Below are positions 3,115-21,924 of a DNA stretch of 64,000 nucleotides, piece by piece. A program made the translations under genes and the position numbers. Position 1 is the first letter of the stretch, and each line of letters starts with the position of its first letter. The DNA is from Rhodothermales bacterium (GTDB lineage Bacteria > Bacteroidota > Rhodothermia > Rhodothermales > VXPQ01), in assembly GCA_965232485.1 (NCBI GenBank), contig OZ246975.1:2027246-2091245 (forward strand), given 5' to 3'. The notes under the pieces are model-generated. The model was given only the letters and a program-made list of their open reading frames with translations. It did no database searches and was not told where the DNA came from.

Positions 3115-3183
3115 ATGGATACGCACCCGCCTGCGGCTGTTGCGGCGGGCTTTTATACATCCAAATACATACTGGTTTTTCTT

Positions 3184-3630: not shown

Positions 3631-3731
3631 CATCTATTGATATTAAAAATCCTTATGCCTATGCGTATACGCTACTGCAATTAGCTATTTAGCATTGCTT
3701 GTTTATAGGACTCCCTAACTGCGGTGACATT

Positions 3732-4331: not shown

Positions 4332-4412
4332 ACAACCTTGTGCTTAAGAATGTTTCTGATGTATGGCTTATGTTTGGGGTGCGCATCGGGCCGGGCTCGG
4401 CAGAACGGCGCG

Positions 4413-4516
4413 AAACAACCCGAAAACTGCGCAACGCATCCGAAAAACTGCAAAAAACTGCGTTTTGCTGTCGAAAACTGTCGAAAAACGCAGAAAACAA
4501 CCCGAAAACTGCGCAA
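4413..4516 (+). repeat. iteron-like repeat cluster
   Basis: The 22-bp direct repeat AAACAACCCGAAAACTGCGCAA occurs at 4413-4434 and 4495-4516. Between them lie five consecutive 10-bp units of the form (C/T)NGAAAA(A)CTG (4441-4490). Confidence 0.5.
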
Positions 4517-4680
4517 AAAAGCAGGAATCTTCACTTTCGGCATAGTCCGGTGCAATGAAGCGCAAGGGCGCGGTATGCCTTCGCGGGGCGGCGCGAAGCC
4601 GCGGGGACGGGCGCATCGAGGCCGCGCCCGTCCCGCATCATGCGCAAAAGCGTTGCATTTCCACCGGTAAACGCATATAC

Positions 4681-4722
4681 CCCAAAAATCAGCCCAAAAT
4701 CCCCCAAAATCAACCCCAAACG
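4681..4722 (+). repeat. phased CCCAAAAT A-tract repeats (about 10-12 bp period)
   Basis: The sequence is cccaaaaatcag cccaaaatcc cccaaaatcaa ccccaaacg. Helically phased A-tracts sit immediately upstream of the Rep-like ORF. Confidence 0.45.
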
Positions 4723-4778
4723 CGCCGTTTCGGGCATAAAACGCGCCGTCGCGGCGGCACAGGCAACGGCGTTCGGGA

Positions 4779-5144
4779 TTGGACGCATTGTGGGCGTACC
4801 GGCTTGACCTTTCCGGCATAGGGACGCGCCGGGCGCAGAAAACGGCGCGGGCTATCTTGCTTGAACTTGTCGGGATGATCAAATGGAACCCGGACGCGGA
4901 CGACTACGGCCAGGCATGGCCAACCGTCGCAAAGATTGCGGCGCGGATAGACCGTAAACCGCGGGGCGTACAGTACATCATGCGGCGGCTTGAAGCGTCC
5001 GGCTACGTCGTTCGGAGCATCCGCAAGCGTTCCGACGGGGGCAACGCATCGAACCTTTACGCGCTGAATCCGGCGGCGCGGGGTGTGGATAACCCCGCAG
5101 TTTGTGCAGCGGGGTTGGAAAGACGGTGTTGCTTGAAACCCTGA
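4779..5144 (+). CDS. winged-helix DNA-binding protein, plasmid/phage replication-initiator-like; its 3' end runs into the repeat junction
   Basis: 121-aa ORF. The segment WPTVAKIAARIDRKPRGVQYIMRRLEASGYVVRSIRKRSDGGNASNLYALN looks like an HTH/wHTH of small Rep-type proteins. The last ~12 codons lie beyond the junction at 5109. Confidence 0.4.
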   Translation: MDALWAYRLDLSGIGTRRAQKTARAILLELVGMIKWNPDADDYGQAWPTVAKIAARIDRKPRGVQYIMRRLEASGYVVRSIRKRSDGGNASNLYALNPAARGVDNPAVCAAGLERRCCLKP

Positions 5145-6163
5145 AGCCCCTTGCACTTGATCGCGGATGGCTGTGGGTCGGGGCCGATCTAAGTGAAACC
5201 GCCAGCCTGCGGGAAGAGCATATGGCCACTCGGCTATGCACCGATCTGTCGCTTGTAACTTCCTCTGTGGCGGCGTCTGTCAGGCAAGTTCAGCCTTTGG
5301 GGTTCGGCGCGAGCACAAAAACGGTGGAGAACCGGCTTGACTACCGGACCCTGACGGATATCTATCGGCAAACGCCAGGGCTTGCGCTCGACAAAATCAA
5401 AACGGTGCTCGAAACAGCGTGGGCAGCGCTGGCCCACACGGAAATACGCGGAATCGTTTTTGCCTACGACGAAGCCCAAAACCTTGCCGACCATGCCGAC
5501 AAGGAGCAATTTCCCCTCTCGCTGCTTCTGGATACATTCCAGTCTATACAAAGGAAAGAACTTCCTCTGATGCTCGTATTGACGGGATTGCCAACGCTCT
5601 TTCCGTCGCTCGTGGAGTCGCGGACTTTTTCCGAACGCATGTTTCGCGTGGTTTTTCTCGACCGTCTTTCGGAAGACGATAGCCGCGAAGCGATTCAGCG
5701 GCCTGTCGCCAATACGAAAGGAACCGTGCAACTGAGTGATAACTCCGTAGACATGATCGTGAAAATGTCCGGCGGTTATCCATACTTCATCCAGTTTATT
5801 TGCAAGGAAGTGTATGATGCGTTTATCCAGCGTATAGACAGGGGCGAAGACGCCTCCGTGCCTACCTCAGAGATCATGCAGAAGCTGGATACGGATTTCT
5901 TTGCCGGGAGATGGAGTCGGGTAACGGACCGGCAGCGGGAACTGATGCTCGTCATCGCGCAACTGGATAGTAGCGACAGCGAATTCACTGTACAGGAGGT
6001 GGTGAAAAAATCCAATGCCGTACTTGACAAGCCATTCAGCAGCAGTCACGTAAATCAGATGCTATCGACGCTGAGCGCCCGTGGCATGGTTTTTAAGAAC
6101 AGGCATGGTCGATACTCCTTCGCGATACCGCTTTTGGCGAGCTATATCCGGCGCCAAATATAA
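5102..6163 (+). pseudogene. 5'-truncated second copy of the AAA ATPase gene
   Basis: Homology to copy 1 begins inside the Walker A codons (copy 1 residue ~52). It has no equivalent N-terminus, RBS or promoter. The C-terminus differs (..RRQI* versus ..RRQMDGTGE*). Confidence 0.7.
5109..6159 (+). repeat. 1051-bp direct repeat, copy 2
   Basis: See copy 1; offset 4515 bp, near-identical. Confidence 0.9.
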
Positions 6164-6195
6164 TGTGGAATGATACGTTGCGGGCGAGCGAGGTT

Positions 6196-6996
6196 TCACG
6201 GTTCGGTACTACTTTCTTTCGGGGCCCGTTTGCGGGTCCGCCTGGACTCGCCCAGAATCCACCGGGGCTTCAGATCGAGATGGAATCGCGTGTTGGCCGC
6301 CTTGACAATAGCGGAAACGGCCTCTTCGGGGGAATCGGTGATCGTCCATCGCTCGGCGTCTTCCGGACTGATCGTGCCTTCCCGAACCATCGCGCCGGAA
6401 ACGAAGTCGATCATTTCCGACCAGTATTCGGCGCCCATCACGACGACAGGCAAATCCAGAATTTTGCCGGTTTGCACCAGCGTAAGCGTTTCGAATATCT
6501 CGTCCATGGTGCCAAAACCGCCCGGCAACACCACGAAGGCATAAGAGTATTTGACCAACATCACCTTACGGACGAAAAAGTGGTTGAAATCCACCCACTG
6601 GTCCAGATACGGGTTGCGTTCCTGTTCCTCGGGAAGTTCGATGCTGCAACCTATACTGAACCCGCCCGCCTCCTTGGCTCCGCGGTTGGCGGCTTCCATG
6701 ACGCCGGGGCCTCCTCCAGTCATCACCGTGAACCCTGCATTGGCCAGTTCGCTGCCCACTTGTCGAGCCAGCTGGTAGTAAACATGATCTTCGGGGAAGC
6801 GAGCCGAGCCGAAAACCGTCACGCAAGGCCCGACAAAATGCAGTTTGCGAAAGCCCCGGAGGAATTCGAGAAAGATGCGACCGGCCCGGATCAGTTCGGC
6901 CAGCCGCCTGCCCGGCCCGCTCAGGAAAAAGCGTTCTTCAAGCGTGCTTTTTTCGGTGCGCGCAGATCCTGGGGTTGTGTTCTTCGATATTTTCAC
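6196..6996 (-). CDS. LOG / TIGR00730-family Rossmann-fold nucleotide-binding protein (lysine-decarboxylase-like)
   Basis: Motifs: VFGSARF...VMTGGGPGVMEAANRGA...VVLPGGFGTMDEIFE (PGGxGTxxE). GTG start. Confidence 0.85.
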   Translation of the reverse strand: MKISKNTTPGSARTEKSTLEERFFLSGPGRRLAELIRAGRIFLEFLRGFRKLHFVGPCVTVFGSARFPEDHVYYQLARQVGSELANAGFTVMTGGGPGVMEAANRGAKEAGGFSIGCSIELPEEQERNPYLDQWVDFNHFFVRKVMLVKYSYAFVVLPGGFGTMDEIFETLTLVQTGKILDLPVVVMGAEYWSEMIDFVSGAMVREGTISPEDAERWTITDSPEEAVSAIVKAANTRFHLDLKPRWILGESRRTRKRAPKESSTEP

Positions 6997-7255
6997 TTGC
7001 CTGGATTGGATAGTATGAGCAATGCGGTCGAGCCCTCAACTAAAGCCTGTGCAGGATCGTCAAGGACAAAGATACTTGCTCGAACGACGAGGCGCTCCCG
7101 GAATGGGTAATAATCAGAAAAAGTAAATATACCGTATTACCCGTGTTTGCCAATATTGAGCATGCGCGCCGATATTTTTAAACAAGTTATTATTTTTAAG
7201 AATTTATAATAAAATAATGATTGGCGCGGAAACGTTTCCAGAACAAGCGCCCGCG

Positions 7256-7699
7256 TTATCGCCTCCAGAATCTGAATCTGCGCTTGGCCTTCCTCAACTC
7301 GAACGTAACCGGAATTTTCATCCGAATCTTGACGGGATTCCCTTGGCTTAAACCCGGACTGAATCGCGCCTGACGCACTACGCGCAGCGCTTCTTCATCG
7401 CAACCGCCGCCAACACCCTTCTTAACCACCGGATCTTCTACAAGGCCCTTCTCATTGACCATGATCGTCACTATAACTTCTCCCTCGATACCGTTCGCGT
7501 AGGCAGAATCGGGATGCTGTATTAACTTCTGCAAGGACCTTTGTCCTCCAATCAATTCAGGCATTTTCTCCACAATGAAAAGCCGTTCAGGCAGTTCCGG
7601 CTTTTGTTCCTGGCCCAATACTTCCTGTCCCCAGCCCCCAAGTATGATCACCCCGATCAGGGCCGCAAGTCCTCTCCGTCCGGATCGTTTTCTGCGCAT
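7256..7699 (-). CDS. TonB C-terminal-domain protein (energy transducer TonB family)
   Basis: N-terminal membrane anchor, then GIEGEVIVTIMVNEKGLVEDPVVKKGVGGGCDEEALRVVRQARFSPG, which is typical of a TonB C-terminal domain. Confidence 0.8.
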   Translation of the reverse strand: MRRKRSGRRGLAALIGVIILGGWGQEVLGQEQKPELPERLFIVEKMPELIGGQRSLQKLIQHPDSAYANGIEGEVIVTIMVNEKGLVEDPVVKKGVGGGCDEEALRVVRQARFSPGLSQGNPVKIRMKIPVTFELRKAKRRFRFWRR

Positions 7700-7779
7700 T
7701 CTATTTCCGGTAAGGCCAAGTCATTTCGGCAGCGTTCCTGTATAATCCCTCTGGCGCTGCTATATGCGCATTCTCTTTC

Positions 7780-8331
7780 CTACCGTATAGCTACCTTTGC
7801 GCACAACTCCGACCGGTGTGGATTCCGGTCCACCCCAGGCGGACTCGCAAGGGGACACAGTCGCAACACTCCGTGAACCATGGCGCCGCCCTCTGCAGCC
7901 TGATCCCATACCTTTGCCTGCTGTTTCCATAGCACTGCTTCCTGCTCCCATATTTCCGCCTCGCGTTCCTGTGCTTCCACGACCCCCCACCACCTCTCCG
8001 GGGTTTCAATCCGGGCCATATAAGATGCCTCCGCCGCCAATCTCCGCACCGTTTTCGCATGCTGGAACGCCTCTGCCGCCGCAGCCCTCGCCTGCACCGC
8101 CAATGCGTCGTATTCTGCTGCATTCCGGGAATCGTTACGAACCGCCCGCGCCAGGGTGGCGAATGCCGCCGGACGCGTCGCTCTTATCTTTTTCCTCTGG
8201 GCCTCTTCCCGTTGATCATGATCATTGATTGAGCCGCCCGTCGTGCCTTCCCATGTCTGCCCTTGCGCTGCGCAGGGCAGCATAGCAAGCATAATCGCCA
8301 GGATGGCAATGCGTACAGCTGATCGCTTCAT
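7780..8331 (-). CDS. hypothetical secreted protein, Ala/Glu-rich helical
   Basis: Signal peptide MKRSAVRIAILAIMLAMLPCAAQG. No recognisable domain. Confidence 0.45.
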   Translation of the reverse strand: MKRSAVRIAILAIMLAMLPCAAQGQTWEGTTGGSINDHDQREEAQRKKIRATRPAAFATLARAVRNDSRNAAEYDALAVQARAAAAEAFQHAKTVRRLAAEASYMARIETPERWWGVVEAQEREAEIWEQEAVLWKQQAKVWDQAAEGGAMVHGVLRLCPLASPPGVDRNPHRSELCAKVAIR

Positions 8332-8389: not shown

Positions 8390-9760
8390 TCAAGTGTTCT
8401 TGGCAGCGAACCGCCTTATTTCGTCTTCGCTGCGGGGATGGCAGGCACGGTGCACGAGCGCGGCGTTTTCGATCGAGGTCGGGCCTCCCTCGCTGTGGGG
8501 TTCGATGTGATGGAACTCCGCCTCGTTCCAAACGACCTCCTTGCCACAAGCTCCGCACTTCCGCTCATCCCGCCAGTAGACAATCTCACGCTCCAAGGAG
8601 CCTAAAACGCGTCGGCCATCCCGGAGCTTCGGCTGCATGTGCTCCTGCATCTTGGTGCAGAAGAAGAGGTGTCGGTCGCGTATGGCATGCGCCACGTCGC
8701 TACTAGTTCTCGCCTTGTAGCCGTATTGTCGCATGTACTCGAAGTCTCCAGGTTTCATTTCGGCTTGCCCAGCACGCTCGCGAGTCCTGGCTTGGGTGAG
8801 GCGTTCCGTGAAACGGTCGAACGCATCAGCAAACGTTGTCTGCCAAGACTCGGGGACGTATTGAGGATCGAGTAGGGTGCCGACCAACAACACCAAATGG
8901 ATCGCCTGATGACCGACCAGCAAAGGTCGCTTCCCGTCGACCAGCAGCTCGGTCACTGTGCCAATGGCGGCAAGGAATTCCTTGGCGAGCGGCGAGTTGT
9001 TGTCGAACTCCATGTGCTTCACATAGTAGGAATCGACGGCTTTCCGGTTGATGTCGCAGAAACGTCCGTCCTCTCGGTAGGTGGCGAACAACATGACCAT
9101 TTGAGCGGCGAGTTGACGTCCCTTCGGCGTATTGGCCCGAACGTTGGCCCGCAGGAGTTTCCTGAAGAAGTCTTGGCCGGGGTATTTGGCCACGTCCTTC
9201 TTGCCTGCCACCTGACAGACGAAGGCACCGAACGCTCCCGGCCACGCATCCCTCTGCTCTTGAGGCGTCAACGGCTTGCCACCCTGCAACCGAATGAAGA
9301 GGTCGCGCACTTCGTTCTCGTCCTCGGTTTCGATGTGGACCACGGACAGCGGCATCTGGAAGAAGCGCGTGCGTGTACGATCATCCAGTTGATGCATGTC
9401 CCTCCCCGCCCACTCGCAAGGCGAATCGATGAGCGACTTCGGAAAACGCCCCGGGTGCTCTCGTGGATCGAGTAGGGGAAAAGCTCCTTCGGAGAACTCG
9501 TAGAGTGCATGGACCCGCTGCTGACCATCGATGATGTACAGCCGGTCGCCGATTTGGAAGCCACTCACCTCGTTCCCCTTCTTGAAGTGCAGGTAGATCA
9601 GCGGGATGTGGTAGCCTCGGAGAATCGAGTCTATGAAGTACTGCTTCTGTAGGCGCGTCCACACGGGTCCGCGCTGGTATTCGGGGTCCACCTCCAACAG
9701 CTTCTTCTTCTGTAGTGTGAGGAGTTCCTTGACGGTCTGTTGCTTTGGGGTCGATTTCAT
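8390..9760 (-). CDS. DUF262 (ParB/GmrS-like NTPase) fused to a C-terminal zinc-finger HNH nuclease
   Basis: 456 aa. The N-terminus has DPEYQRGPVW (QR at 29-30), IIDGQQR (78-82) and FIRLQGGKPLTPQE. The C-terminus has C402-x2-C405, H417-H418, N432, H437 and C440-H441. Confidence 0.85.
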   Translation of the reverse strand: MKSTPKQQTVKELLTLQKKKLLEVDPEYQRGPVWTRLQKQYFIDSILRGYHIPLIYLHFKKGNEVSGFQIGDRLYIIDGQQRVHALYEFSEGAFPLLDPREHPGRFPKSLIDSPCEWAGRDMHQLDDRTRTRFFQMPLSVVHIETEDENEVRDLFIRLQGGKPLTPQEQRDAWPGAFGAFVCQVAGKKDVAKYPGQDFFRKLLRANVRANTPKGRQLAAQMVMLFATYREDGRFCDINRKAVDSYYVKHMEFDNNSPLAKEFLAAIGTVTELLVDGKRPLLVGHQAIHLVLLVGTLLDPQYVPESWQTTFADAFDRFTERLTQARTRERAGQAEMKPGDFEYMRQYGYKARTSSDVAHAIRDRHLFFCTKMQEHMQPKLRDGRRVLGSLEREIVYWRDERKCGACGKEVVWNEAEFHHIEPHSEGGPTSIENAALVHRACHPRSEDEIRRFAAKNT

Positions 9761-9890
9761 TCGAAAAACTCGCTGGAGAACGGGAACGTCCTTCAGGCCT
9801 CAGCAAGAGGCCGGCCGGCTGGAAACCAAGCTATGTGGTCTGGGTTCCCGGCGCGAGACAGGGGGCATTTGGGGCACGGCAATTGACATT

Positions 9891-12800
9891 TTAGGCCGTG
9901 TACTCTTTCAATCTTTGGTACCGGGGATCATTCTGTATCTCCGGCTTCGCCTGCAAAATGTCCTTTAGACACTGGTTTAGTTCGGGATGCGACCATGGCT
10001 GATCGCTAATGACAGCGTACAGCAAACACAGCGTTGCATTCGGGAATCTTGCACAGAAATCGCCCTCCTGCAGCTGGTGGACAACGTAGTGGGAATACGC
10101 AAGCGGCTGGAGCCAACCGTGGATCAAATCCACCGCATCTGGAAATTTCTCTCCAGCGGCTATGCTCATCAATGCAAGTGACTCCGTGATGTCATCAGAA
10201 ACCAATTCGAGCGATTTTGGCCACATCTCTTGCCAAAAAGGCTGGATACGATTGCTCCAGTAGTCCTCGCGTTGCGCACCTGCGCTTTCAAGCGCTTGCG
10301 AGAGAATTCGTGCCGCTTCCTGCAACCCCTCCTCCTGTGGCAGGGCACTGAACGCCTGCCGAAATCCTGTCGCCTCATCTTTGTCCGTGCATTCCAGCGC
10401 CGCGTAGGTCAGAACTGCAACATACTGCCGCTTGAACTCACCCAAGTCGTCGTAGTGGCTCGCGGTTTCAATGAACTGCGGCCTGAAAGCATCCAGCAGG
10501 GGCCGATAAAGGCGTGGAGACCAGAGGAAGCCTTCCCAGACTATTTGGGCTTCTATGGGATTCTTTGTCCATCGGAAAAGGGGCAACAGATACTGCTCGG
10601 TCCAGGATCGGTCAACCCGAAACAGCGTAATCAATCTTGACGCCAACACTGCTCTACCATGACGGAACTGTTCTACCTGCGTATCACACATTTTCGTGAA
10701 GAGAGGCTCAAGGCCGTCAGGCAGGCGGTCATTGTCGTTCGGCTCGCGCCGGAACCAAAGAGACAACAGCGCTTGGGTAACAAGGCCGACCGGATGGTTG
10801 ATTGCTTCAGTGACAGAGCGCTGGATCCGTTCGCCACCCTGAGTTATTGTTAGGCCAGAACCAGATTCGAAGGGTGAATTCAGAATACGCCGGCACAAAT
10901 CAAGCAGGATTTCATCATGTCCCTCGCCGGATTTGGACGTAGCGTATAGCCACCAGGCAACACCGTGTGCAATCTCCTGCAAAATATTATCAGGCATGGT
11001 CGCTACCAGCGGAGCCGCATAGCGCCACGACCGCTGTACCATATCTTCCTCGCTCCACACCTGTAATGCTTCTCGCCAACGGCTTGCCGGCCAGATGCCT
11101 TGTTGAGCCAAGTCGCAAAGAGCAACAAAGCTCAAGGGGAACTGAGTGCGACATGTATCAGGCCAAGTGTCCTCATCGGACCAATGCTTCTTGGGCGGAG
11201 GAGTCCTTAGCCATTGAACCAAGTCGCGCCGGTTGCGAGGTGCAATATTGATCTCCCTGTTGTCTTCGTAGTCTGGATCTCCGGTTCCACTAATCCAGAG
11301 CGGGAATTCTTCGGGCTCGTGAGGAAGCAATTCCCATGAAGTATTGGTCGAAGACAAGGTATCGAAGCGGCTTTGTGCGGCCTTCCCCAAGTCCAGCCCT
11401 GATGCGTTCAGTTTCGCCAGACGCAACCACACTGAGCGTTTCACAATTTTTTCCCAGTGTGCAGGCTCAAGGTCTTCTGGGTACATGTCGCGCGGAGGAC
11501 CATCCAGAATAGCGGCTTCGAGCATATCCTGAGATGAAGACAGGCAGTGACCTTGTAGCGCCAAGAGGCGCATGACTTCGCGTTGTGTTTCTTCGGACCA
11601 CAGCCACCAACATGCATCACACAGTAACCAGTCAGACCATTGAACCGAATCAATGCATCCATCTTGGCTGGCGGCGAAAAAGGCGAGACGCTTGAACGTG
11701 GGATACGGAAGTTCAAACCATTCCTCTGCAATCCGAGTCGCCCTTGCAAGGTCATCTTCCTGAACAACCTGCCAGGCATCGCGCAGAAGTTCGATCAGTA
11801 TCACCCAGTCGCGGGAGCGCCGATTCTGCCAGTGCGGTTCGATTGAGGGCAGGCCCACAAACGAACCGTCGCTGCGGTCAACTGCCCCGCCTAATTCGCG
11901 CAGGAGATCCAAGGCGTCGCGCAACAATTGCTGTAGATCATCCAATAGCACGGGCAAGGCGGCTCGCCAATGTTCATCGGTCCGATCGCCAATAACCGAT
12001 TGAACATGGTCAGCGGCAAGCACAAGTTCCCAGTCGGGAATGTGTCTCGAGTGCTCGGAAGAATCCGGTTTAACAAGTTCATCAGGCCATCGGAACGGCC
12101 TTCTCAAGGCAATCATGGGCGAAAGAAATTCCCGCAACTTCATACGCAGGGATACAGTCAGGCCGTCGCGCTTCAGGTGATCCACCCACCGGGAAAGACT
12201 GATATCGCCTCGAAAAGATTTCACGCGCCCCCTCAACAATAGACGCCAAAGTAGCCGCATCCTTTCGTCAGGAATAGCCTTTGGAGAATTCGCGCGAATC
12301 TTATCCAGTTCGTCGCTTTTGCCTTCGCGGTTCAGTTTGTCAAGGCGATCAAGCTCGTCCTCGATCAACCCCGCCAATTTCTCATGCAGTCGACTTCCAT
12401 TTTCCACCAGCCAGTAGATCAGCTGAGGGTCGTTAAGGTGTCGCGTCAGCCAGTGGGCGACATAACGCATCACGGCATCCCAACCAGTGTCGCGATTACT
12501 CCCGATGAGCGTCATCCATGGAGTGCGCCCGTAGGATGCAGGTCGATTTATGAAGCTGAACCGGAGATCAGAGTCAATGGGCGGTCGGGACGAGATGCCG
12601 AAGCGACTCAAATCGTCATACCGAAAGCGATTCTCGGAAAATACCGTCAACCACTCGATTGGCGGCGCTGGATTGAGCTCCGCGAAACGCTTGGCTGGAA
12701 GTCCTGATTTATCCGAAAGCGCCCAGAGTACGCGCCCTACGAAGTCATCCTGCTGGGTGCTTGCAGAGGGCCGCGCCAACGCATGTTGAACCACAATCTG

Positions 12801-13712
12801 CTCCTTGCCAAAGACTCCATCGCGGTGGGTTTCCCCCCAGAGTTTCAATGTCTGATGCAGCGCGGCATGGCGGTTCTTTCCTGAACGAACTTCGTAGAGA
12901 ATCGGAAAGACTCCCTTGGACTCCCATGCAATGGATTGGGTCATTTTCTCACCAGGATCGTAACCTCCCAAGGCGTAGGCTTGGGGTGTTGCTTCGCCCA
13001 GCATCCGGTCGGCAGCCAACGCATCCATCATGTAGCGCAACACCGGATCGTTGATGCTATACCCGACAAAACACACCACATAGTTGCGAAACAACTCGCT
13101 GACGAAGCGCGCTGCCCATCGCTCGGTCAGGTAAGCCAAGCCAAAATCGCCGCTGGTAACAACGAGCCTGTGCAGTGCGATCTCGTCTTCGTCCGGTTTC
13201 GAGGGCAACAATCCGTGCAAATAGACGAGCCCATCCCAGCGGCTGGTCTTTGGAATGGGGAGTGTCGGTGCGGTATATGGATGGTACGACTGCTTGCTTC
13301 GTCTGGCAGCGTGCTCAAATATCTGATCGAAATTGGTGGTAACGAGTCGTAGATTCCCATCGCGACCCCGGGCCAGATGGAGGAGCGCGGTGTGGGTATC
13401 GGTAGCCCCGCGGCGTCTGAGTTTGGGTTTCAGGACCTCTGCCAATTCCTTTCGAACGGCGATTCGCTGTCCAGGAAATCGACGTTCCAGCAAGTCTAAG
13501 GCTATGTCGAACTGTTCCCGCTCATAGGCTTTGGCTTCAATCTCGGTAGGATTTGTACCCAATCGCCCATAAATCTTGTCCACCAACCCCTTGAAGCCCG
13601 GCAATCCTGCGGGATAGGAAATGCCCGCTCCACAGAAGAACACTGCGCGGTCCTCTTCGTGCGCCTGCAGAAGAGCATCTGGAATGTCCGGGCCGTTGCT
13701 TATGAATTGCAT
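9891..13712 (-). CDS. 1273-aa protein: N-terminal SIR2-like (SIR2_2) NADase domain plus a ~1000-aa Trp-rich helical C-terminal region; DSR1/DSR2-like architecture
   Basis: Motifs: FFCGAGIS (28-32), VTTNFD (Asn127), YLHG (His166), CFVGYSINDP. The remainder has no motif I recognise. GC looks lower than in the core genes. Confidence 0.85.
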   Translation of the reverse strand: MQFISNGPDIPDALLQAHEEDRAVFFCGAGISYPAGLPGFKGLVDKIYGRLGTNPTEIEAKAYEREQFDIALDLLERRFPGQRIAVRKELAEVLKPKLRRRGATDTHTALLHLARGRDGNLRLVTTNFDQIFEHAARRSKQSYHPYTAPTLPIPKTSRWDGLVYLHGLLPSKPDEDEIALHRLVVTSGDFGLAYLTERWAARFVSELFRNYVVCFVGYSINDPVLRYMMDALAADRMLGEATPQAYALGGYDPGEKMTQSIAWESKGVFPILYEVRSGKNRHAALHQTLKLWGETHRDGVFGKEQIVVQHALARPSASTQQDDFVGRVLWALSDKSGLPAKRFAELNPAPPIEWLTVFSENRFRYDDLSRFGISSRPPIDSDLRFSFINRPASYGRTPWMTLIGSNRDTGWDAVMRYVAHWLTRHLNDPQLIYWLVENGSRLHEKLAGLIEDELDRLDKLNREGKSDELDKIRANSPKAIPDERMRLLWRLLLRGRVKSFRGDISLSRWVDHLKRDGLTVSLRMKLREFLSPMIALRRPFRWPDELVKPDSSEHSRHIPDWELVLAADHVQSVIGDRTDEHWRAALPVLLDDLQQLLRDALDLLRELGGAVDRSDGSFVGLPSIEPHWQNRRSRDWVILIELLRDAWQVVQEDDLARATRIAEEWFELPYPTFKRLAFFAASQDGCIDSVQWSDWLLCDACWWLWSEETQREVMRLLALQGHCLSSSQDMLEAAILDGPPRDMYPEDLEPAHWEKIVKRSVWLRLAKLNASGLDLGKAAQSRFDTLSSTNTSWELLPHEPEEFPLWISGTGDPDYEDNREINIAPRNRRDLVQWLRTPPPKKHWSDEDTWPDTCRTQFPLSFVALCDLAQQGIWPASRWREALQVWSEEDMVQRSWRYAAPLVATMPDNILQEIAHGVAWWLYATSKSGEGHDEILLDLCRRILNSPFESGSGLTITQGGERIQRSVTEAINHPVGLVTQALLSLWFRREPNDNDRLPDGLEPLFTKMCDTQVEQFRHGRAVLASRLITLFRVDRSWTEQYLLPLFRWTKNPIEAQIVWEGFLWSPRLYRPLLDAFRPQFIETASHYDDLGEFKRQYVAVLTYAALECTDKDEATGFRQAFSALPQEEGLQEAARILSQALESAGAQREDYWSNRIQPFWQEMWPKSLELVSDDITESLALMSIAAGEKFPDAVDLIHGWLQPLAYSHYVVHQLQEGDFCARFPNATLCLLYAVISDQPWSHPELNQCLKDILQAKPEIQNDPRYQRLKEYTA

Positions 13713-13805
13713 TGAGTGGGTCTACTTCTTCTCACTGGTCGGGCTATATTAAGAAGCGCAGTGTGTCCGTCCTTGTTTGACGGACTGTCAAGGAAATACT
13801 AAACT

Positions 13806-16361
13806 TCACCCCCGAAACAGCATCTCATTCAGCCGCGCTTGCCACTCCTCCTCGTCAACGACCTCAAAGCGCACTACCTTGCTTCGCATTGCAGGAACGA
13901 ATTGGGCCCAATCTGCCTTGCGGGCATGGTCGCTACAGATATCGAAGACGGACCGCTTGTATTCAGTGTCTTCCGACCCCTTCAGGTGAACGCCTTTGGT
14001 TTCGACTACGAAAACCTGGTGAAAGTCATCATCTGCTTCGGACTCGTCGTCCCGCAACGTCACGATGAAATCGGCGTATATCCGACGTGGCCTCCATCCC
14101 TGCACATAGTAATCCTTGCGAGCACGGTTGCGATACCAAAAGAAGAGCCGGGCTTGTTGATCCAGATAGGTCGCCACCTTGTTCTCGAACTGGTTGAGAT
14201 CATCCTCTGTGGTGACATCGAAAAGGTTCCGCTGGTAGGGGCTGCCGTCCTCCCGGTTCGCCTGCTTCGCTTGTGGAACCTCAATTTTTTCGGGAAGGCT
14301 ATTGAAATCGAGATCCTCTGTGACAACCAGAAAGCGCATCTTGCCTGACTCCAGGAGACGGCGAAAGACTTCCCGCGACAAGCGGTCGCGCTCCATCTCA
14401 ATCTGTCGGCGCAGCTCCTCGAGGATAAAAACATGATTGGCCGCCACGCGCTCGAATGGATAACGCTCAAGCAGTACCCTGAAAGTACGGCGAGCCAAAT
14501 CGCACCCTCGCCACGGATTGGGCACCAGATCCAGCAGGTGGCTGGCAGCAAAAAAGTAATCCACGGGGTCGGTATCGCTGCTTGCCCCAGACCCATTCGT
14601 TGTTTCAACCCCGGAAACATCAAACCCCGGAATGCTTGCGTCATCCGTCAGGTTTGCTCGCAACGCCACATCTCCTTGATTGCCCTCGCCCATATTCAGA
14701 TCGCCCAATGGACTAATGTCGATGTCGCCCCAGGGCACCCTTGAGAGGATGTCCGCCTCGTAATGAACCAGACGCCAACCATCCACACCTCGAATCATAA
14801 AGACAGGGAGGACCAGATCGCGCGCTGCTTTCCGGTAATTATCCCGCTGCCGAGTCATCTGTTTCTCCGCTGGCCCGGTCAGACTTTCATTGGAAACTAC
14901 TCTTCCTTCCAGTCCCTGCAAGCCCTCCAGCCCGAATCCTTTCCTAACTTCTCTCAACAACTCGTTTGCACGACGACTGAAACAGAAGACATAGCTCTCG
15001 TCAAGCCAAGCCACCCTGGTTTTCTGTGCATACGGCTGTCGCAAAATACGCCCGACCAACTGCGTGATCCCCGTTCTTGACATTGGGTTGGTGAGGATCG
15101 TCAGAATGTAGGCGAACGAACAATCCCAACCTTCCTGTAGCGCCTGTTTGGTGATGATGAAACGGATCGAACAGTCACGGGACATCAGACCGCCTATGTC
15201 GTCCACCTCCTTGAGATCGTCTTGTACGCTGGTCTTGACCGCAATGTGCTCCGCGCCGATTCCCGGGTGCTGGAGCAGGTACTCGCGCACGTCGTCGGTG
15301 TGAACGTATCCGGGCTTGCGCTGCTCTTTGCCGGTTCTTTCGACCTGGATTACGCAAATGGGCCGGATGTAGCTCCCGGTCTCCGCTTCGTGCCGCTGCG
15401 CTTCCACCTCCAGGTGCTCGCGGTGTTCGATCGACGCAAGCAACGTATTCCGCCAGTCGTTGCTTGCCTTGTTAAGAATGTGCAGGTCCAGCTTGATCAT
15501 CTCTTCGGCGTTAAGCTCCTGGCCCCGGATCTCGACGAGCACATTGGCGCCCTTGGTTGGCGTGGCCGAAAGCTCCACAATCATGCACGGGTTGAAACCT
15601 TCGAGCGTCGCTTTTGCGTTGGCGCTGTACGCCTTGTGTCCCTCGTCAAGGATGATCAGGGGCCGTAGCAGACGCACTGTGTTGCCAAGCGAGGTCTTGA
15701 TGTAGCGGCCCCAGAAGCCTGTCGTTTGCTCGAAGGTATCGAGATTGGGATATTCCTCCAGCATTTTGGCGTGCGCCGGGGAATCGTCGTCCGGAGGAAA
15801 AAACCGGTCGAAGCCCCCGCTGTCGCGAAACATCCGCAGTGTATCCTTCGTCTGCCGGTTAGCCGACGGAAGCATGAGCAAAAGGATACAAAGGTTCTCA
15901 GCGACATCGCGCGGGCCAAAGGCCATGGTTTTCTCAAGGATGAGCGTACGCTGCCCTGACGCCAGATCGATCTGTTGGCGATAAGGGTGGTCGCGATCCT
16001 TGAGCGCCTTGAGCGTCTGATTGTATATCTGCGTTGTAGGCACGATCCACAGAACGAGCCCGCGCTGATTCTGCCGGAAATGTACGTTGACAAGGTCAAT
16101 CACCTTGGTTGCAAGCAATGTCTTGCCGCCGCCAGTCGGAACCTTGAGGCAGAAAGTAGGCAAATAGTCGCCGAGTCCGTTGCGACGAGGAATACATATC
16201 CTCCCGGGTACTGTCTTGCTCCATGCCCGTTGAACCCAGTCGAAACCCCAATCGGGGTTCTGGCTTCGGGCATCCCCGTCCGCTTTCCTCCACTTTGCGA
16301 GATTCTCAAGGAAATCGTGTACTGTTTCCAGCGTTCGCTTTTGGTATTCCTTCAGGATCAT
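13806..16361 (-). CDS. res: Type III restriction endonuclease, Res subunit (SF2 helicase plus C-terminal PD-(D/E)xK)
   Basis: 851 aa. Walker A VPTGGGKTLLA, DEGH box LIILDEGHKAY, and a C-terminal YADFIV...VFVVETKG nuclease-like motif. The start overlaps the mod stop (ATGA). Confidence 0.9.
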   Translation of the reverse strand: MILKEYQKRTLETVHDFLENLAKWRKADGDARSQNPDWGFDWVQRAWSKTVPGRICIPRRNGLGDYLPTFCLKVPTGGGKTLLATKVIDLVNVHFRQNQRGLVLWIVPTTQIYNQTLKALKDRDHPYRQQIDLASGQRTLILEKTMAFGPRDVAENLCILLLMLPSANRQTKDTLRMFRDSGGFDRFFPPDDDSPAHAKMLEEYPNLDTFEQTTGFWGRYIKTSLGNTVRLLRPLIILDEGHKAYSANAKATLEGFNPCMIVELSATPTKGANVLVEIRGQELNAEEMIKLDLHILNKASNDWRNTLLASIEHREHLEVEAQRHEAETGSYIRPICVIQVERTGKEQRKPGYVHTDDVREYLLQHPGIGAEHIAVKTSVQDDLKEVDDIGGLMSRDCSIRFIITKQALQEGWDCSFAYILTILTNPMSRTGITQLVGRILRQPYAQKTRVAWLDESYVFCFSRRANELLREVRKGFGLEGLQGLEGRVVSNESLTGPAEKQMTRQRDNYRKAARDLVLPVFMIRGVDGWRLVHYEADILSRVPWGDIDISPLGDLNMGEGNQGDVALRANLTDDASIPGFDVSGVETTNGSGASSDTDPVDYFFAASHLLDLVPNPWRGCDLARRTFRVLLERYPFERVAANHVFILEELRRQIEMERDRLSREVFRRLLESGKMRFLVVTEDLDFNSLPEKIEVPQAKQANREDGSPYQRNLFDVTTEDDLNQFENKVATYLDQQARLFFWYRNRARKDYYVQGWRPRRIYADFIVTLRDDESEADDDFHQVFVVETKGVHLKGSEDTEYKRSVFDICSDHARKADWAQFVPAMRSKVVRFEVVDEEEWQARLNEMLFRG

Positions 16362-18262
16362 GGTTCCAGCCTCTCGATCGCCTCGTATATCTGAAAGGGC
16401 AACTGCTGGAAATCGATCCGGTATTCGTGAAGAAACTCTGGATCCAGGTACTTGGCGGGTGCAAAGACGAGCCGCTTACGCTTGCTGCTGGGCAGAGTGC
16501 GGGCGACAGGAAGGGTCAGCGCGAGATTCTTGAGCTTTTCGACATTCGGCTCATAGAGAAGAAAAACATCATGCGACGCGGTGCGACCGACAAACCCGGT
16601 GTCACTGTTAGTCTCGGCCGGGTCGAACTCCTGTCCGGTCGCTGTGAAGAAGATGTACGAGGCGAGCTTCTCCCACGACGGGAGGTGGGAGCCGTCGAGG
16701 AGCGACTCCTGGCGCATGGGGCGCCCAAGCTCGAAGTAGCTGAAGGTGCCACCGAGGCCCTCAGTATGTTCGACAACTGCCGTCTCACCAGCGACGACGA
16801 GTTTTCCTTTCTCGAATTGCCTCGATATTTGGTCGTAATCGTCCCTGTACTGCTCCTCAATGGCCTTCACGGACCCTGTCAGTTTGTCGCTTAGCTTCGC
16901 CCATGTGATCTCCTCCCGCATCAACTCTGTCTTCTGGGTACCCGTGAAGGCGTATCCGTTGATGACGCGCCGGACGCGCTCGGCAGTGATCGTGTCCGCA
17001 TAGTCCTCGCACTCGACCAAAATGAAACGCCGGTTGCCACCGTCCTCCCGGTTCTGGGCGAGGACAGCGTGGGCCGTAGTGCCGGAACCAGCGAAAGAAT
17101 CGAGAACGATGGAGTCGGGGTCCGTGGCGATCTGGAGGATGCGGCGAACGAGGCGAGACGGCTTGACGGTGTTGAATACGTCTTCGGATCGCTCGAATTG
17201 GAGCGCGGAGACCAGTTCTTTCTTTGCTTCCTGCGTGTTGCCAACATCGGTGTGAAGCCAAAGTGTCTGCGGGACGACTCCCTTCCTCACATCGGTCAGG
17301 AATCGCTTGAGGCGAGGCATGCTGTTGCCACCCTTTCCCCACCAAACCCGCCCGTCCTTATCCAGTTCAGCGAACTTCTTGGGAGATACGCGAAAGTAGT
17401 TGCCGACCGACGGCTTGAACTTCTTTCCAGCGGGGCTGGTAACCTCGTAGGTGCCTTGACCGTAGAAATTTCGTGCCGTCAAGTCGCTGGAGGACCACGG
17501 CCCCCGTGGATCATCATCAGGATTCTTGTAACGTCCAGTCGCCCGCTCACTACGCGCTATCAAGTTTGGGCGCCATGCTTCAATGCGCCGCGCGTACGCC
17601 ATCACGTAGTCGTGATCTTCCGAGAAGTATTTCGCGGTGTTCTTCGGGGAAAAGACTTTCTGCCATATGGCGGTGGCCAAGAAGTTTTCCTCGCCGAACA
17701 CCTCGTCCATCAGAGAGCGCAGGTGATGCACTTCGTTGTCGTCGATGGACACGAAGATCGCCCCGTCCTCCCGGAGCAGTTCGCGCAGCAGCTTCAGGCG
17801 CGGCGTCATCATGCAGCACCACTTGTCGTGGCGGGTCAAGTCGTCTCGGTCTACCACCTTGCCCAACCAGTTCTTCATCAGCGGCGAAGTCACGTTGTCG
17901 TTGTACGCCCAGCCCTCGTTCCCCGTGTTGTAAGGCGGGTCGATGTACACGCACTTCACCTTGCCGTGATAGGTCGGCAACAGCGACTTGAGCGCGGCCA
18001 GGTTGTCGCCGTGGATGATCAGGTTATCGCGCAGGCTTGCCTTCTCGCTCAGCCCCTTCTCACGCACTGGCAGCAGCTCGTGGAAGGGCACAGCCAAGTG
18101 ATGGTTCTCGACAAAGACCTTGCCCTTGAAATGGAGTCGCGGCAAAGGATCCCTCCTCTGAAATCTATTATTTAACGTGCATCCACTGCTTTGCCCACTA
18201 GCGCTACGGAACGCCTGCCTTAAACTAAGCCCCGTATTGTCGCCGCACAACCCGTTTTCCAT
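16358..18262 (-). CDS. mod: Type III R-M DNA methyltransferase, Mod subunit (beta-class N6A/N4C MTase)
   Basis: 634 aa. VYIDPPYNTG (motif IV) precedes DSFAGSGTTAHAV (motif I). The first ~40 codons are uncertain. Confidence 0.9.
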   Translation of the reverse strand: MENGLCGDNTGLSLRQAFRSASGQSSGCTLNNRFQRRDPLPRLHFKGKVFVENHHLAVPFHELLPVREKGLSEKASLRDNLIIHGDNLAALKSLLPTYHGKVKCVYIDPPYNTGNEGWAYNDNVTSPLMKNWLGKVVDRDDLTRHDKWCCMMTPRLKLLRELLREDGAIFVSIDDNEVHHLRSLMDEVFGEENFLATAIWQKVFSPKNTAKYFSEDHDYVMAYARRIEAWRPNLIARSERATGRYKNPDDDPRGPWSSSDLTARNFYGQGTYEVTSPAGKKFKPSVGNYFRVSPKKFAELDKDGRVWWGKGGNSMPRLKRFLTDVRKGVVPQTLWLHTDVGNTQEAKKELVSALQFERSEDVFNTVKPSRLVRRILQIATDPDSIVLDSFAGSGTTAHAVLAQNREDGGNRRFILVECEDYADTITAERVRRVINGYAFTGTQKTELMREEITWAKLSDKLTGSVKAIEEQYRDDYDQISRQFEKGKLVVAGETAVVEHTEGLGGTFSYFELGRPMRQESLLDGSHLPSWEKLASYIFFTATGQEFDPAETNSDTGFVGRTASHDVFLLYEPNVEKLKNLALTLPVARTLPSSKRKRLVFAPAKYLDPEFLHEYRIDFQQLPFQIYEAIERLEP

Positions 18263-18390: not shown

Positions 18391-21300
18391 TTGCGATCAA
18401 ATCATCCCGCCAGTCAGGAAGCAATCGGCCCAAATGCCTCATCCTGCGAACATCCCGACCCGTTTCGTCGTTTTTCGATGCGCCCGGCGCGAAACCGCGC
18501 GCCAGCGCAACAGCCGTTTCACGTCTTTCCCGCCCAAAACCCGTTCGATCCCGTGGCGCTTGCTTCGATCCGCAGGCAACTGGCCTCCACGGACGTCTTT
18601 CGCAAGGCGTCCGCATGGTGTGAACGAATAGACCCCGAAGCCCCCTCTACGCTTCAAATAAAAGGGTTGGCCGGATCCGTCTCGTCCTTCCTGCTGGCCC
18701 GACTCCACGAAACGGCCAACGCGGCGAATATCCTCTGCGTCTACATTGCGCCGAACGAGGAAATAGCCGCCTGGGCCTTCGGAGACATTGCCCAGCTGGT
18801 CGAGGAAGACGAGGGCGCCCTGCAACTGCCGGCCACGGGACACAAACCCTACGACGCCGAACAACTGGACGATCTGGCCCCGATCATCGCCCGGACCGAT
18901 GTGCTGCAACAAATCGCCGACGGATTCCACGGCCTGGTCGTAACGAGCGTCGAGGCGCTTGTGGAAATGACTCCCCCCGCGGAAACGATCCGAAACCGCA
19001 CGATCTCCATCGCTACGGGAATGGTCTTTCCGCCGGAGAAACTGGCGCAGCGCCTGGTGAAATTGGGTTTCGAGCACGCCGAGTTCGTGGAGCGACCCGG
19101 AGAAATAGCGCTTCGGGGCGGCATCCTCGACATCTATCCATTCACCGGCTCGTGGCCCATCCGGGCAGAATTCTTCGGCGACGACATCGAATCCCTGCGC
19201 GAATTCGACCCCCGGTCGCAACGATCCATCAGCCGCCTGACCACCGCCCGCCTCGTTCCGAATACGGGGAACGATCTGTCCGACGCCAGCGCCCGCGCAT
19301 CCATCTTCGAACAATTTCCCGAACGCGCGCTGCTTGTCACGACGGACGAAGAAGGGCTGACAGAACACGCCGCCAAGCGATTCGAAGCCACCGAAAAAGC
19401 CTGGCGCCATGCGCTGCGCGAAATCCCCGAAGCGCCCGTCCCCGCCACGCGGTATCTCTCTGGCGAAGCCTTCGAGCAAGCTTTGCTCCTTCGTAATCGG
19501 ATACTGCTTGGCTCGTTCGGCGGCGGCGGCGAACGCCTCCTTCGGTTCGACGCCGCCCCGCAACCGGACTTCAATGGGAATATCGGCCTGCTTCGCACGC
19601 GCATTCTGACCAACGCCGAACGCGGCGTGCGCACCTTTATCCTTTGCGATAGTCGAGGGCAAGAGGTTCGCCTGTCCGAACTCCTCGGCGACGAAACAGC
19701 CCAGGAAAATGTTCGCATCTCCATCGAATCGCTGCACGAAGGATTCGAAATTCCCTCGCTTGGCCTGGCCGTCTACACGGATCATCAGATATTCAATCGT
19801 TACCACCGTCCCTCCGTGCGCGGGCAAAAGAAACGGTACGGCGGACTGGGCCTGCAAGCGCTGAAAAATCTCTCGCCCGGCGATTTCGTGGTCCATGTGG
19901 ATTACGGAATCGGCCGCTTCGCCGGACTGCATCGCATCACGGTGCGCGAAAAACAGCAGGAATCCGTCAAAGTGCTTTTTCGGGACGAGGACATCCTGTA
20001 TGTCAATGTCAATGCGCTCCACAAACTCCACAAATATTCCGGCAAGGACGGGCGGCCGCCCACGCTCACCAAGCTGGGTTCCGGGCAATGGGAGCGCACG
20101 AAATCCCGCGCCAAAGGCAAGGTCAAGGATATTGCGCGAGACCTGATCGCGCTCTACGCAAAGCGAAAACAATCCGCCGGGGTCGCTTTTTCCCCGGACA
20201 CGATCTGGCAGCGGGAAATGGAAGCCTCGTTCCGCTACGAGGACACGCCAGACCAGACCGCCGCCACAGACGCCGTCAAAGCCGATATGGAAACGGCGGC
20301 GCCCATGGATCGGCTGATCTGCGGAGACGTCGGATTCGGCAAAACGGAAGTCGCTGTCCGGGCAGCCTTCAAGGCGGCGCAGGACGGTAAACAGGTGGCG
20401 ATCCTGGCCCCCACCACCATCCTTGCCGCGCAACATTTCAAAACCTTCTCGAAAAGGCTGGAAAAATATCCGGTCTATGTGGAGATGTTGTCGCGTTTCC
20501 GCTCCGCCGCCGAGCAAAAACAGATCGTCCGGCGCCTCGCGGACGGCGATGTGGACATTGTGGTGGGGACGCATCGCCTGACTTCGCAGGATATCCGGTT
20601 CAAAGACCTGGGCCTGCTCATTATCGACGAAGAGCAACGCTTCGGGGTAGCCGTCAAGGAACGCCTGCGAAAACTGCGCGCCGAGGTGGATACGCTTACC
20701 CTTACCGCAACGCCCATCCCCCGAACGCTTCAATTCTCTCTGCTGGGCGCCCGGGATTTATCGCTCGTCACCACGCCGCCCCCGAACCGGCAACCGGTCA
20801 ACACGGAGATCCATACTTTCGACAAGGACCTGATCCGGGACGCCATCCTGTACGAAGTCAGTCGAGGCGGACAGGTCTTCTTTCTGCACAACAACATCTG
20901 CACTATCGACGAAATGGCCGACAGCCTGCGCCTCATCGTCCCGAACGTTCGCATGCGAACGGCGCACGGGCAAATGAAATCGAGCGCGCTGGAACAGGTC
21001 ATGGCGGATTTTATCGGCGGACGGTTCGACGTACTCGTGAGCACCAGCATCATTGAGAACGGCCTCGACATACCCAACGCCAATACGATCATTATCGATC
21101 GGGCGGACCGGTTCGGTCTCGCCGAACTGCACCAGCTTCGCGGGCGCGTCGGGCGTTCGGACCGAAAAGCCTTCTGCTACCTGCTTGTTTCGTCCATCCA
21201 CGGACTCACGCGCGAAGCGCGGCAACGACTGCAAGCCGTCGAGGAATTTTCGGACCTCGGGGGCGGATTCAATCTGGCCATGCGCGATCTGGATATCCGG

Positions 21301-21924
21301 GGCGCAGGCAATCTCCTCGGAGGCGAGCAAAGCGGCTTTATCGACGAGGTTGGTTTTGAAACCTGGCGCAAGATTCTGGAAGAGGCCGTGCTGGAACTCC
21401 GCGAAGAGGAATTTGCAGACGCGCTGGACCGCGAAGCGGCGCCGGTCGCCGCCGAAACCACGGTGGATATCGAAGAAGACGCCTTCATCCCGGAGGACTA
21501 CGTTGCAAACAATGTAGAGCGGTTGAATATCTATCGCCGCATAAGCGAAGCCGAAGACATCCCAGCGCTGGAGACCCTGCGCGACGAAATGCAAGACCGT
21601 TTCGGGGACCTGCCCGCCGAAGCGGATCATCTGTTCATCGCCGCCGAAATGAAATTCCTTGGCCAGTCGCTGCGCCTGTCCAGGGTGCTTTTCAAAAACG
21701 AACGACTCTTTCTGTATATGCCGTCCGCAGAAAACGATCCGTATTTCCACGAACGAATCTTTTACCGCTTTCTGGAACAGCTGAGCAACCTGGGCCAGCG
21801 ATACGTACTGAAAGAAACGAAGCGACGGACCGTGCGGGCGATCGTGCAGGAAGTGCCCAGGCTTTCCGACGCGCACAAGACTCTGCGGCGCCTGCAACCC
21901 GAATCCGCAAGCGTAGCGGCGTAA
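18391..21924 (+). CDS. mfd: transcription-repair coupling factor
   Basis: Motifs: CGDVGFGKTEVA, LLIIDEEQRFG, LTATPIPRTL and a TRCF C-terminal domain. An alternative ATG start at 18478 is plausible. Confidence 0.9.
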   Translation: MRSNHPASQEAIGPNASSCEHPDPFRRFSMRPARNRAPAQQPFHVFPAQNPFDPVALASIRRQLASTDVFRKASAWCERIDPEAPSTLQIKGLAGSVSSFLLARLHETANAANILCVYIAPNEEIAAWAFGDIAQLVEEDEGALQLPATGHKPYDAEQLDDLAPIIARTDVLQQIADGFHGLVVTSVEALVEMTPPAETIRNRTISIATGMVFPPEKLAQRLVKLGFEHAEFVERPGEIALRGGILDIYPFTGSWPIRAEFFGDDIESLREFDPRSQRSISRLTTARLVPNTGNDLSDASARASIFEQFPERALLVTTDEEGLTEHAAKRFEATEKAWRHALREIPEAPVPATRYLSGEAFEQALLLRNRILLGSFGGGGERLLRFDAAPQPDFNGNIGLLRTRILTNAERGVRTFILCDSRGQEVRLSELLGDETAQENVRISIESLHEGFEIPSLGLAVYTDHQIFNRYHRPSVRGQKKRYGGLGLQALKNLSPGDFVVHVDYGIGRFAGLHRITVREKQQESVKVLFRDEDILYVNVNALHKLHKYSGKDGRPPTLTKLGSGQWERTKSRAKGKVKDIARDLIALYAKRKQSAGVAFSPDTIWQREMEASFRYEDTPDQTAATDAVKADMETAAPMDRLICGDVGFGKTEVAVRAAFKAAQDGKQVAILAPTTILAAQHFKTFSKRLEKYPVYVEMLSRFRSAAEQKQIVRRLADGDVDIVVGTHRLTSQDIRFKDLGLLIIDEEQRFGVAVKERLRKLRAEVDTLTLTATPIPRTLQFSLLGARDLSLVTTPPPNRQPVNTEIHTFDKDLIRDAILYEVSRGGQVFFLHNNICTIDEMADSLRLIVPNVRMRTAHGQMKSSALEQVMADFIGGRFDVLVSTSIIENGLDIPNANTIIIDRADRFGLAELHQLRGRVGRSDRKAFCYLLVSSIHGLTREARQRLQAVEEFSDLGGGFNLAMRDLDIRGAGNLLGGEQSGFIDEVGFETWRKILEEAVLELREEEFADALDREAAPVAAETTVDIEEDAFIPEDYVANNVERLNIYRRISEAEDIPALETLRDEMQDRFGDLPAEADHLFIAAEMKFLGQSLRLSRVLFKNERLFLYMPSAENDPYFHERIFYRFLEQLSNLGQRYVLKETKRRTVRAIVQEVPRLSDAHKTLRRLQPESASVAA

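Follow-up and report, generated by a model that had tools for sequence, protein, structure and literature searches.

Four adjacent defence genes of a Rhodothermales bacterium as a probable island of three self-sufficient modules at an mfd–LOG recombination hotspot

We analysed a stretch of 64,000 nucleotides from a Rhodothermales bacterium (contig OZ246975.1, positions 2,027,246 to 2,091,245; hereafter named the window), and in it a block of four co-directional defence-type genes on the minus strand at 8390–18262. In the direction of reading, the list of open reading frames (ORFs) gives mod (16358–18262; 634 aa) and res (13806–16361; 851 aa), which form a Type III restriction–modification (R-M) pair, then the gene of a 1273-aa SIR2 protein referred to below as DSR1 (9891–13712), and finally the gene of a 456-aa DUF262-HNH nuclease (8390–9760). 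An ATGA is common to the mod stop codon and the res start codon (sequence CCATGATCC), and the intergenic gaps are 93 bp between res and the DSR1 gene and 130 bp between the DSR1 and nuclease genes. The four minus-strand ORFs, the overlap and both gaps had been given exactly in an earlier note made from the letters alone, and its domain calls were upheld by Pfam and PADLOC for all four proteins. That note had also remarked on the lack of a terminator between the genes and of a tRNA or integrase at the edges of the block, and we indeed found no hairpin-plus-U-tract terminator in either gap, no tRNA within 10 kb of the block and no integrase at its edges, with mobile-element traces lying 2–6 kb further left. 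It had described the block as lower in GC than the adjacent mfd gene, which is correct (0.560 compared with 0.599), but as a signal this is weak, the block lying ~0.7 S.D. under the window mean (0.579, S.D. 0.027, in 4-kb windows). An argument for recent acquisition from the GC content of the block was dropped because the deviation is too small, being within 1 S.D. of the window mean.

Mod matched Pfam N6_N4_Mtase (9e-37) and PADLOC MTase_III (591 bits). Its motifs run from DPPY at aa 108 to FAGSG at aa 390, the order of the β-class N6-adenine type, with a variable target-recognition domain (TRD) region between them at approximately nt 17127–17676. Mod relatives are 590–595 aa long and the profile matches start near aa 40 of the listed protein; judged by these alignments, the true start may lie ~39 codons downstream of the listed ATG. 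Res matched Pfam ResIII and DEAD and PADLOC REase_III (PDLC03653; 544 bits over aa 57–841), and contains the helicase motifs GGGKT77, DEGH239 and SAT265 and a C-terminal nuclease motif D764...E787-x-K789. In Type III enzymes, methylation by Mod affects one strand of an asymmetric site, and ATP-dependent cleavage takes place at unmethylated sites in inverse orientation. Of the features that mark this type, the pair shows mod first, res adjacent and co-directional, and the class motifs in both proteins. It resembles EcoP15I and EcoP1I in the mod-res order with overlapping stop and start codons, in a β-class Mod with DPPY before FxGxG and the TRD in between, and in a Res with superfamily 2 (SF2) helicase motifs and a C-terminal D...ExK nuclease, the PADLOC matches being full-length. 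It differs in that Res matches the NCBIfam Type III Res equivalog very weakly, and because this score is 18 bits we regard Res as belonging to a distant Type III subfamily; it also differs in having a TRD that varies between close relatives. Two stretches of mod, ~17127–17676 (the TRD region) and 16759–16956 (C-terminal), could not be aligned between relatives that are otherwise 81–92% identical, a pattern which points to allelic specificity swapping. The length of Mod ranges from 534 to 634 aa, and in one relative (L165) mod is broken into two ORFs.

By its agreement with curated models, the 1273-aa SIR2 protein is full-length DSR1 (defence-associated sirtuin 1). The NCBIfam Dsr1 equivalog NF041818 scored 1929 bits (cutoff 1400) over aa 1–1272 of 1273, and PADLOC Dsr1 (PDLC02183) scored 2012 bits over model positions 1–1270 of 1275. 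The earlier note had placed this long SIR2 protein outside the named systems, DSR1 included; these scores show that to be wrong, the PADLOC check assigning the gene wholly to the named system DSR1. The SIR2 NADase domain occupies aa ~14–271 (nt 12900–13673, minus strand) with the motifs GAGIS28, TNFD126 and LHG165, Pfam SIR2_2 matching at aa 123–271 (5.5e-22), and GAGIS28, TNFD126 and H166, which include the catalytic Asn and His, were unchanged throughout an alignment of 20 homologues. The ~1000 residues past this domain form the sensor region; a search of solved structures with DSR1 gave no match outside the SIR2 domain. There are more than 3800 homologues, nearly all of ~1270 aa, and several at 62–64% identity carry the NCBI name ‘anti-phage defense-associated sirtuin Dsr1’.

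The preprint of Garb et al., which cites Gao et al. 2020 for DSR1, reported that DSR1 alone gave B. subtilis protection from phage phi29 with a transient drop in NAD+. A 2026 preprint (PMC12803255) reported that the C-terminal region of Dsr1 is a TPR-repeat sensor homologous to the Avs7 sensor, and that the trigger of E. coli Dsr1 is the phage major capsid protein. Because of this report, the long C-terminus of the 1273-aa protein is, by homology, the known DSR1 sensor, and the full-length homology suggests that capsid sensing and phage-triggered NAD+ depletion would apply to this DSR1 as well. Besides its length and its end-to-end match to the models, the protein shares with DSR1 an N-terminal SIR2 domain with intact GAGxS, TNFD and HG, the long C-terminal sensor and the character of a single mobile gene; it differs in its Rhodothermales-type host, in its 55–64% identity to proteobacterial homologues that NCBI names Dsr1, and in the position of this copy directly 3′ of a Type III R-M pair. 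DSR2, Thoeris ThsA, SIR2-HerA and SIR2-pAgo follow the same SIR2 NADase effector principle. However, the matches of ThsA to the protein were weak and confined to the SIR2 domain, Dsr2 was not among the PADLOC matches listed for it, and HerA, pAgo and ThsB were not seen among the annotated flanking genes. Thoeris, SIR2-HerA and DSR2 were therefore rejected as identities for the SIR2 protein, the matches being either weak and domain-limited or absent.

The mark of GmrSD-type enzymes is that NTPs stimulate them to cut modified DNA, in particular modified-cytosine DNA. The 456-aa protein carries Pfam GmrSD_N (DUF262, PF03235) at aa 11–172 (7e-20) and Pfam HNH (PF01844) at aa 402–444 (3e-11), with HNH_5 below the cutoff, and had no Pfam match to DUF1524, the C-terminal domain expected of GmrSD. 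It consists of an N-terminal ParB/DUF262 NTPase-like domain (DGQQR78), a helical middle and a C-terminal zinc-finger HNH (C402-x2-C405, H417-H418, N432, H437 and C440-H441), and neither DGQQR78 nor any of these HNH residues varied among 25 homologues, the most distant of which have 45% identity. The family has at least 1457 proteins, nearly all of 450–480 aa and with the identical two Pfam domains. When the AlphaFold model of the protein (pLDDT 83.6) was analysed using Foldseek, the best match was BrxU (7p9k; E 1e-5, probability 1.0), followed by the nucleotide-binding domains of ParB, KorB and Noc for the N-terminal part and by the HNH domains of Cas9, EcoKMcrA and ScoMcrA for the C-terminal part. 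BrxU was missed when solved structures were searched with the nuclease as a single sequence, was weak in the profile search, where the alignment covered aa 25–86 alone (E = 0.002), and was found by the fold search.

The GmrSD family is defined by DUF262 together with DUF1524 (PMC12707154; PMC4619093). The 456-aa protein is not a strict member because a canonical PF01844 HNH replaces DUF1524; from its predicted fold and domain content, we take it as an architectural variant of the GmrSD type that probably acts, by analogy, like a Type IV enzyme. With GmrSD, Eco94GmrSD, BrxU and SspE it has in common an N-terminal DUF262/ParB-like domain with DGQQR and a C-terminal His-Me-finger nuclease in a single stand-alone polypeptide found in defence islands, BrxU being its top structural match. 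It differs in its zinc-finger HNH (PF01844), which has the same superfold as DUF1524 but is of another family, and in its length (456 aa compared with ~580). The top PADLOC match of the nuclease was to Menshen NsnA (83 bits), via the common ParB-DUF262 region. Menshen (NsnABC) comprises NsnA, a DUF262 protein, NsnB, an ABC ATPase with DUF3696, and NsnC, with inPIN plus a nuclease; unlike the protein here, NsnA has no nuclease domain and the effector is a separate protein. Menshen was rejected for the nuclease, which has no NsnB or NsnC beside it, its neighbours being the gene of a 183-aa secreted protein downstream and DSR1 upstream. The family combining DUF262 with a canonical HNH is large and apparently uncharacterised, which makes it a target for follow-up.

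The closest relatives of the locus come from Rhodothermales metagenome-assembled genomes and related metagenome contigs, with 74–86% protein identity, and their loci likewise sit between mfd and a LOG-like gene. The four-gene order of the window recurs in L168, L165/L166 and L082, the nuclease gene of L082 being truncated beside an insertion sequence (IS) ORF. Other combinations were also found. Mod-Res-DSR1 occurs without the nuclease in L001, L003 and L169, and Mod-Res occurs with the nuclease in L083 and L084, where an unrelated 2.4-kb cassette takes the DSR1 slot. DSR1 stands alone in L167 amid Mu-like, TniB and mutator-type transposase genes, and in L081 a nuclease 81% identical with the present one lies ~130 kb from the DSR1 of L169 on the same contig.

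The ends of homology to the window lie close to the ORFs. In L167, the homology (89% at the nt level) sets in 5 bp ahead of the DSR1 ATG and stops 8 bp past its stop codon; in L083 it ends 35 bp past the res stop and resumes 6 bp before the nuclease ATG; and in L001 and L003 it ends 11–17 bp past the DSR1 stop. Even in L082, with its identical gene order, the DNA that separates DSR1 from the nuclease is unconserved. A 7-bp hairpin (GTCCGTC...GACGGAC; 13765–13785, minus strand) lies 20 nt past the res stop, is conserved in the relatives and has no U-tract, and the break of homology in L083, that is, the cassette junction at window position 13771, falls inside it. The locus is a site of modular exchange at a recombination hotspot, with junctions within a few bases of coding sequences. 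As such, it offers a clean natural case of the exchange of defence cassettes near ORF ends between a fixed mfd and a fixed LOG gene.

Beyond this lineage, the association of the two genes was examined in both directions. A DSR1 alignment was scanned against one genome per species and gave at least 538 relatives, of which 80 loci from 80 species were kept with up to 10 kb of flank; at least 1.5 kb of downstream DNA was available in 69 of these loci and at least 5 kb in 60. For DUF262-HNH, the sample consisted of 80 loci from a metagenome scan. The DUF262-HNH profile hidden Markov model had no match in the 80 DSR1 loci, and the DSR1 profile had none in the 80 DUF262-HNH loci, which by the rule of three places adjacency beyond the Rhodothermales lineage below ~4–6%. 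In annotation-free clustering of the four neighbours on either side, the most frequent partner family was present at 8/80 DSR1 loci and 4/80 DUF262-HNH loci. Among the 108 immediate neighbours of the 80 DUF262-HNH loci, Pfam found PLDc_2 four times and every other family at most three times, and SIR2 was absent from the families listed. Scanning the directly adjacent genes with Pfam and PADLOC gave results in agreement with the lack of a partner. For DSR1 in particular, the single-gene character is borne out by there being no neighbour family in more than 8/80 species and by the coding sequence having moved alone in L167. These results show that DSR1 and DUF262-HNH each behave as stand-alone modules. 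The earlier note had favoured an undescribed two- or four-gene system and had called for a tabulation of adjacency; the system finds no support here, with 0/80 both ways and each gene occurring without the other in the lineage, and the neighbour rate is no higher than that of random defence-island genes, the outcome which that note had itself named as speaking against its proposal.

We also analysed the gaps for signs of transcriptional control. Folding of the 93- and 130-bp gaps was no better than that of shuffled sequence (z = −1.7 and −0.6), scans for σ70 promoters and intrinsic terminators gave no more sites than in shuffled sequence, although this phylum may use other promoter types, and no Rfam family was matched. 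Because terminators are lacking and the junctions carry almost no upstream DNA, read-through from mod into the downstream genes is plausible. A similar arrangement was seen elsewhere. In 10 of the 80 species (L008, L009, L020, L023, L026, L040, L045, L063, L067 and L079), DSR1 starts 0–2 bp past a Type I hsdS, usually with hsdM further upstream. This suggests that R-M operons frequently carry DSR1 at their 3′ end as a co-transcribed passenger, the operon being of Type III here and of Type I in approximately one-eighth of species. We read this as passenger co-expression and not as mechanistic dependence, because DSR1 works alone, the type of the accompanying R-M system is not constant and such R-M genes are missing near most copies of DSR1.

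Taken together, it is highly probable that the block is a defence island of three self-sufficient modules of known kinds at the mfd–LOG recombination hotspot. The earlier note had offered three stacked independent systems as its alternative, and this is what the family matches and the presence of all gene combinations in the relatives favour. The data show which proteins these are, that their catalytic motifs are intact and that each module has been gained, lost and moved on its own, and the four genes do not require one another. Some points weigh against this interpretation. Four related genomes have the same order with conserved spacing and no recognisable terminator, and the genes of the block may share a transcript and hence be co-regulated. 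For the nuclease, a domain arrangement unlike that of BrxU keeps its global TM-score to that structure low (0.23), and no experimentally characterised DUF262 protein with a canonical PF01844 HNH was found in the literature searched, so that its Type IV-like function rests on fold and domain content. The retention of the four-gene order is attributable to shared descent, the loci being 81–92% identical at the nt level. A lineage-specific single transcript with functional interlocking, that is, a co-regulated three-layer operon giving protection beyond the sum of its parts, with DUF262-HNH or DSR1 adapted, for example, to phages not stopped by the co-encoded Type III enzyme, seems to us improbable. 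The same holds for a narrower part of this reading, in which the family combining DUF262 with a canonical HNH would be a class of single-chain Type IV-like enzyme with new modification specificity.

A stricter dependence, with all four genes forming one layered operon in which, for example, abortive infection (Abi) and Type IV layers are licensed by R-M, is very unlikely: co-direction, short gaps and the ATGA overlap would suit it, as would the joint presence of Mod-Res-DSR1 with a conserved 90–93-bp spacer in seven of the eight DSR1-carrying relatives and the ten species with DSR1 directly past hsdS, but the R-M partner differs by lineage (Type I or Type III), such an R-M gene is missing from the flanks in ~67 of the 80 species, DSR1 occurs without R-M in L167 and Mod-Res without DSR1 in L083, a pattern that fits the co-expression of a passenger gene better than mechanistic dependence. 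Alternatively, rather than being an independent Type IV enzyme, the nuclease might be linked in function to the Type III methyltransferase, whose methyl mark it would read or avoid, as it stays with Mod-Res in L083 and L084 where DSR1 has been replaced, and as the homologue in L081 has an N6_N4 methyltransferase and a DEAD/ResIII helicase nearby. Against this, the 108 neighbours of the 80 DUF262-HNH loci include just two members of each methyltransferase family and two of ResIII, Mod-Res is without the nuclease in L001, L003 and L169, and the L081 helicase is convergent and carries Helicase_C_2, which is not seen in the Res proteins here. In view of the neighbour survey we rejected the link to methyltransferases and helicases that L081 and L083 had hinted at, and we hold this explanation to be highly improbable. 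That DSR1 and DUF262-HNH form a new two-gene system, for example with the nuclease sensing foreign DNA and activating SIR2 or with NAD+-derived products activating the nuclease, is scarcely credible. The two genes are indeed adjacent, co-directional and 130–134 bp apart in the window, L168, L165/L166 and L082, with no terminator between them; yet they do not co-occur in either set of 80 loci beyond the lineage, they live apart within it (DSR1 in L001, L003, L169 and L167, the nuclease in L083, L084 and L081), their spacer is not conserved, and DSR1 suffices alone in published tests. With the ‘unrecognised giant SIR2 protein’ identified as DSR1 and its pairing with the nuclease seen as a lineage-local accident of island assembly, a false lead is cleared.

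On the reading of three self-sufficient modules, we infer the triggers, the substrates and the complementarity of the layers as follows. In the first module, Mod would mark one strand of a short asymmetric site and Mod-Res would cut unmethylated DNA with ATP. In the second, the C-terminal TPR sensor of DSR1 would bind a structural protein of the phage (for the E. coli homologue tested, the major capsid protein), and this binding would activate the SIR2 domain, such that NAD+ is degraded and phage replication starved. In the third, DUF262-HNH would sense or gate through its ParB-like NTP-binding domain and its HNH would cut phage DNA, by analogy with GmrSD and BrxU, the substrate most likely being DNA with modified bases. 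The three layers would act one after another, on different phages or at different stages. Restriction would act first, followed by the nuclease on modified DNA that escapes restriction, with NAD+ depletion coming late, once capsid protein appears.

The cassette in the DSR1 slot of the sister genomes (L083:7882-9199 and L084:633-2401) begins with the gene of a 253-aa TIGR04255-family protein. In distant genomes, the TIGR04255 gene belongs to a conserved three-gene unit with products of ~256, 246 and 168 aa (L171:6001-8010 and L172:6001-8005). In L172 this unit lies between mod and res of another Type III-like R-M locus, and in L170/L171 it adjoins a PIN/PhD toxin–antitoxin pair. No Pfam, PHROG or PADLOC assignment was obtained for the cassette save for a weak PDC-M32A match to the 187-aa protein of L083 (E 1.7e-5), and TIGR04255 was not mentioned in the literature searched. 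The three-gene unit is a candidate undescribed defence cassette, and its unannotated presence in the DSR1 slot of a sister genome makes it useful for follow-up.

The right border of the hotspot is formed by mfd, the gene of the transcription-repair coupling factor (18391–21924, plus strand; Pfam TRCF, UvrB_inter and CarD_TRCF_RID), which is collinear with the relatives at 83–92% nt identity and opens a flank of core housekeeping genes (mfd, rsmG, mnmG, mnmE and yidC). The left border is a LOG/SLOG-cluster4-like gene (6196–6996, minus strand; Pfam Lysine_decarbox 1e-33 and LDcluster4 2e-21), which by synteny follows the variable cassettes in all of the relatives examined. A plus-strand ORF at 6163–7110 was rejected as a gene, synteny and Pfam favouring the minus-strand 6196–6996. 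Between this border and the block lie two minus-strand genes (7256–8331), one for the 183-aa protein with a signal-peptide-like N-terminus in its sequence (7780–8331) and one for a 147-aa protein with Pfam TonB_C (7256–7699), which are present or absent depending on the relative; these envelope-type genes are probably not defence genes. The LOG/SLOG gene gave a weak PADLOC match to PsyrA, and its copy in L168 is broken into two ORFs. Because SLOG domains are predicted to sense nucleotides in conflict systems, the border gene may itself be defence-related.

A 1-kb direct repeat is one of the mobile traces further left, the others being a fragment of an IS4/5 transposase and an ORF that resembles a replication initiator. 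The repeat (1051 bp, 99.7% identical) lies at 594–1644 and 5109–6159 and spans the 3′ part of an AAA_16 ATPase gene (440–1663), the second copy being 5′-truncated. The segment of ~3.46 kb bracketed by the repeats (1645–5108) contains the transposase fragment (2096–2659, minus strand), an ORF of low GC content (3699–4331; GC 0.34) and the ORF resembling a phage replication initiator (4779–5144). It may represent a small element that integrated through one crossover, or else a duplicated stretch or an artefact of assembly. With 230 bits, the AAA_16 ATPase matched phrog_6841, a phage family. Copies of it, or parts of it, occur in relatives (L003:4215-5505, L001:9671-9754, L169:2992-3392 and L165:10416-10646), where their position in the hotspot varies between the mfd-mod interval, past DSR1 and past the nuclease, and because of these different positions we take it to be mobile or a substrate of recombination. 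On the opposite side, past mfd and rsmG, mnmG, mnmE and yidC occupy 22614–27996. This set is typically found near the chromosomal replication origin, and on that ground the hotspot may be origin-proximal.

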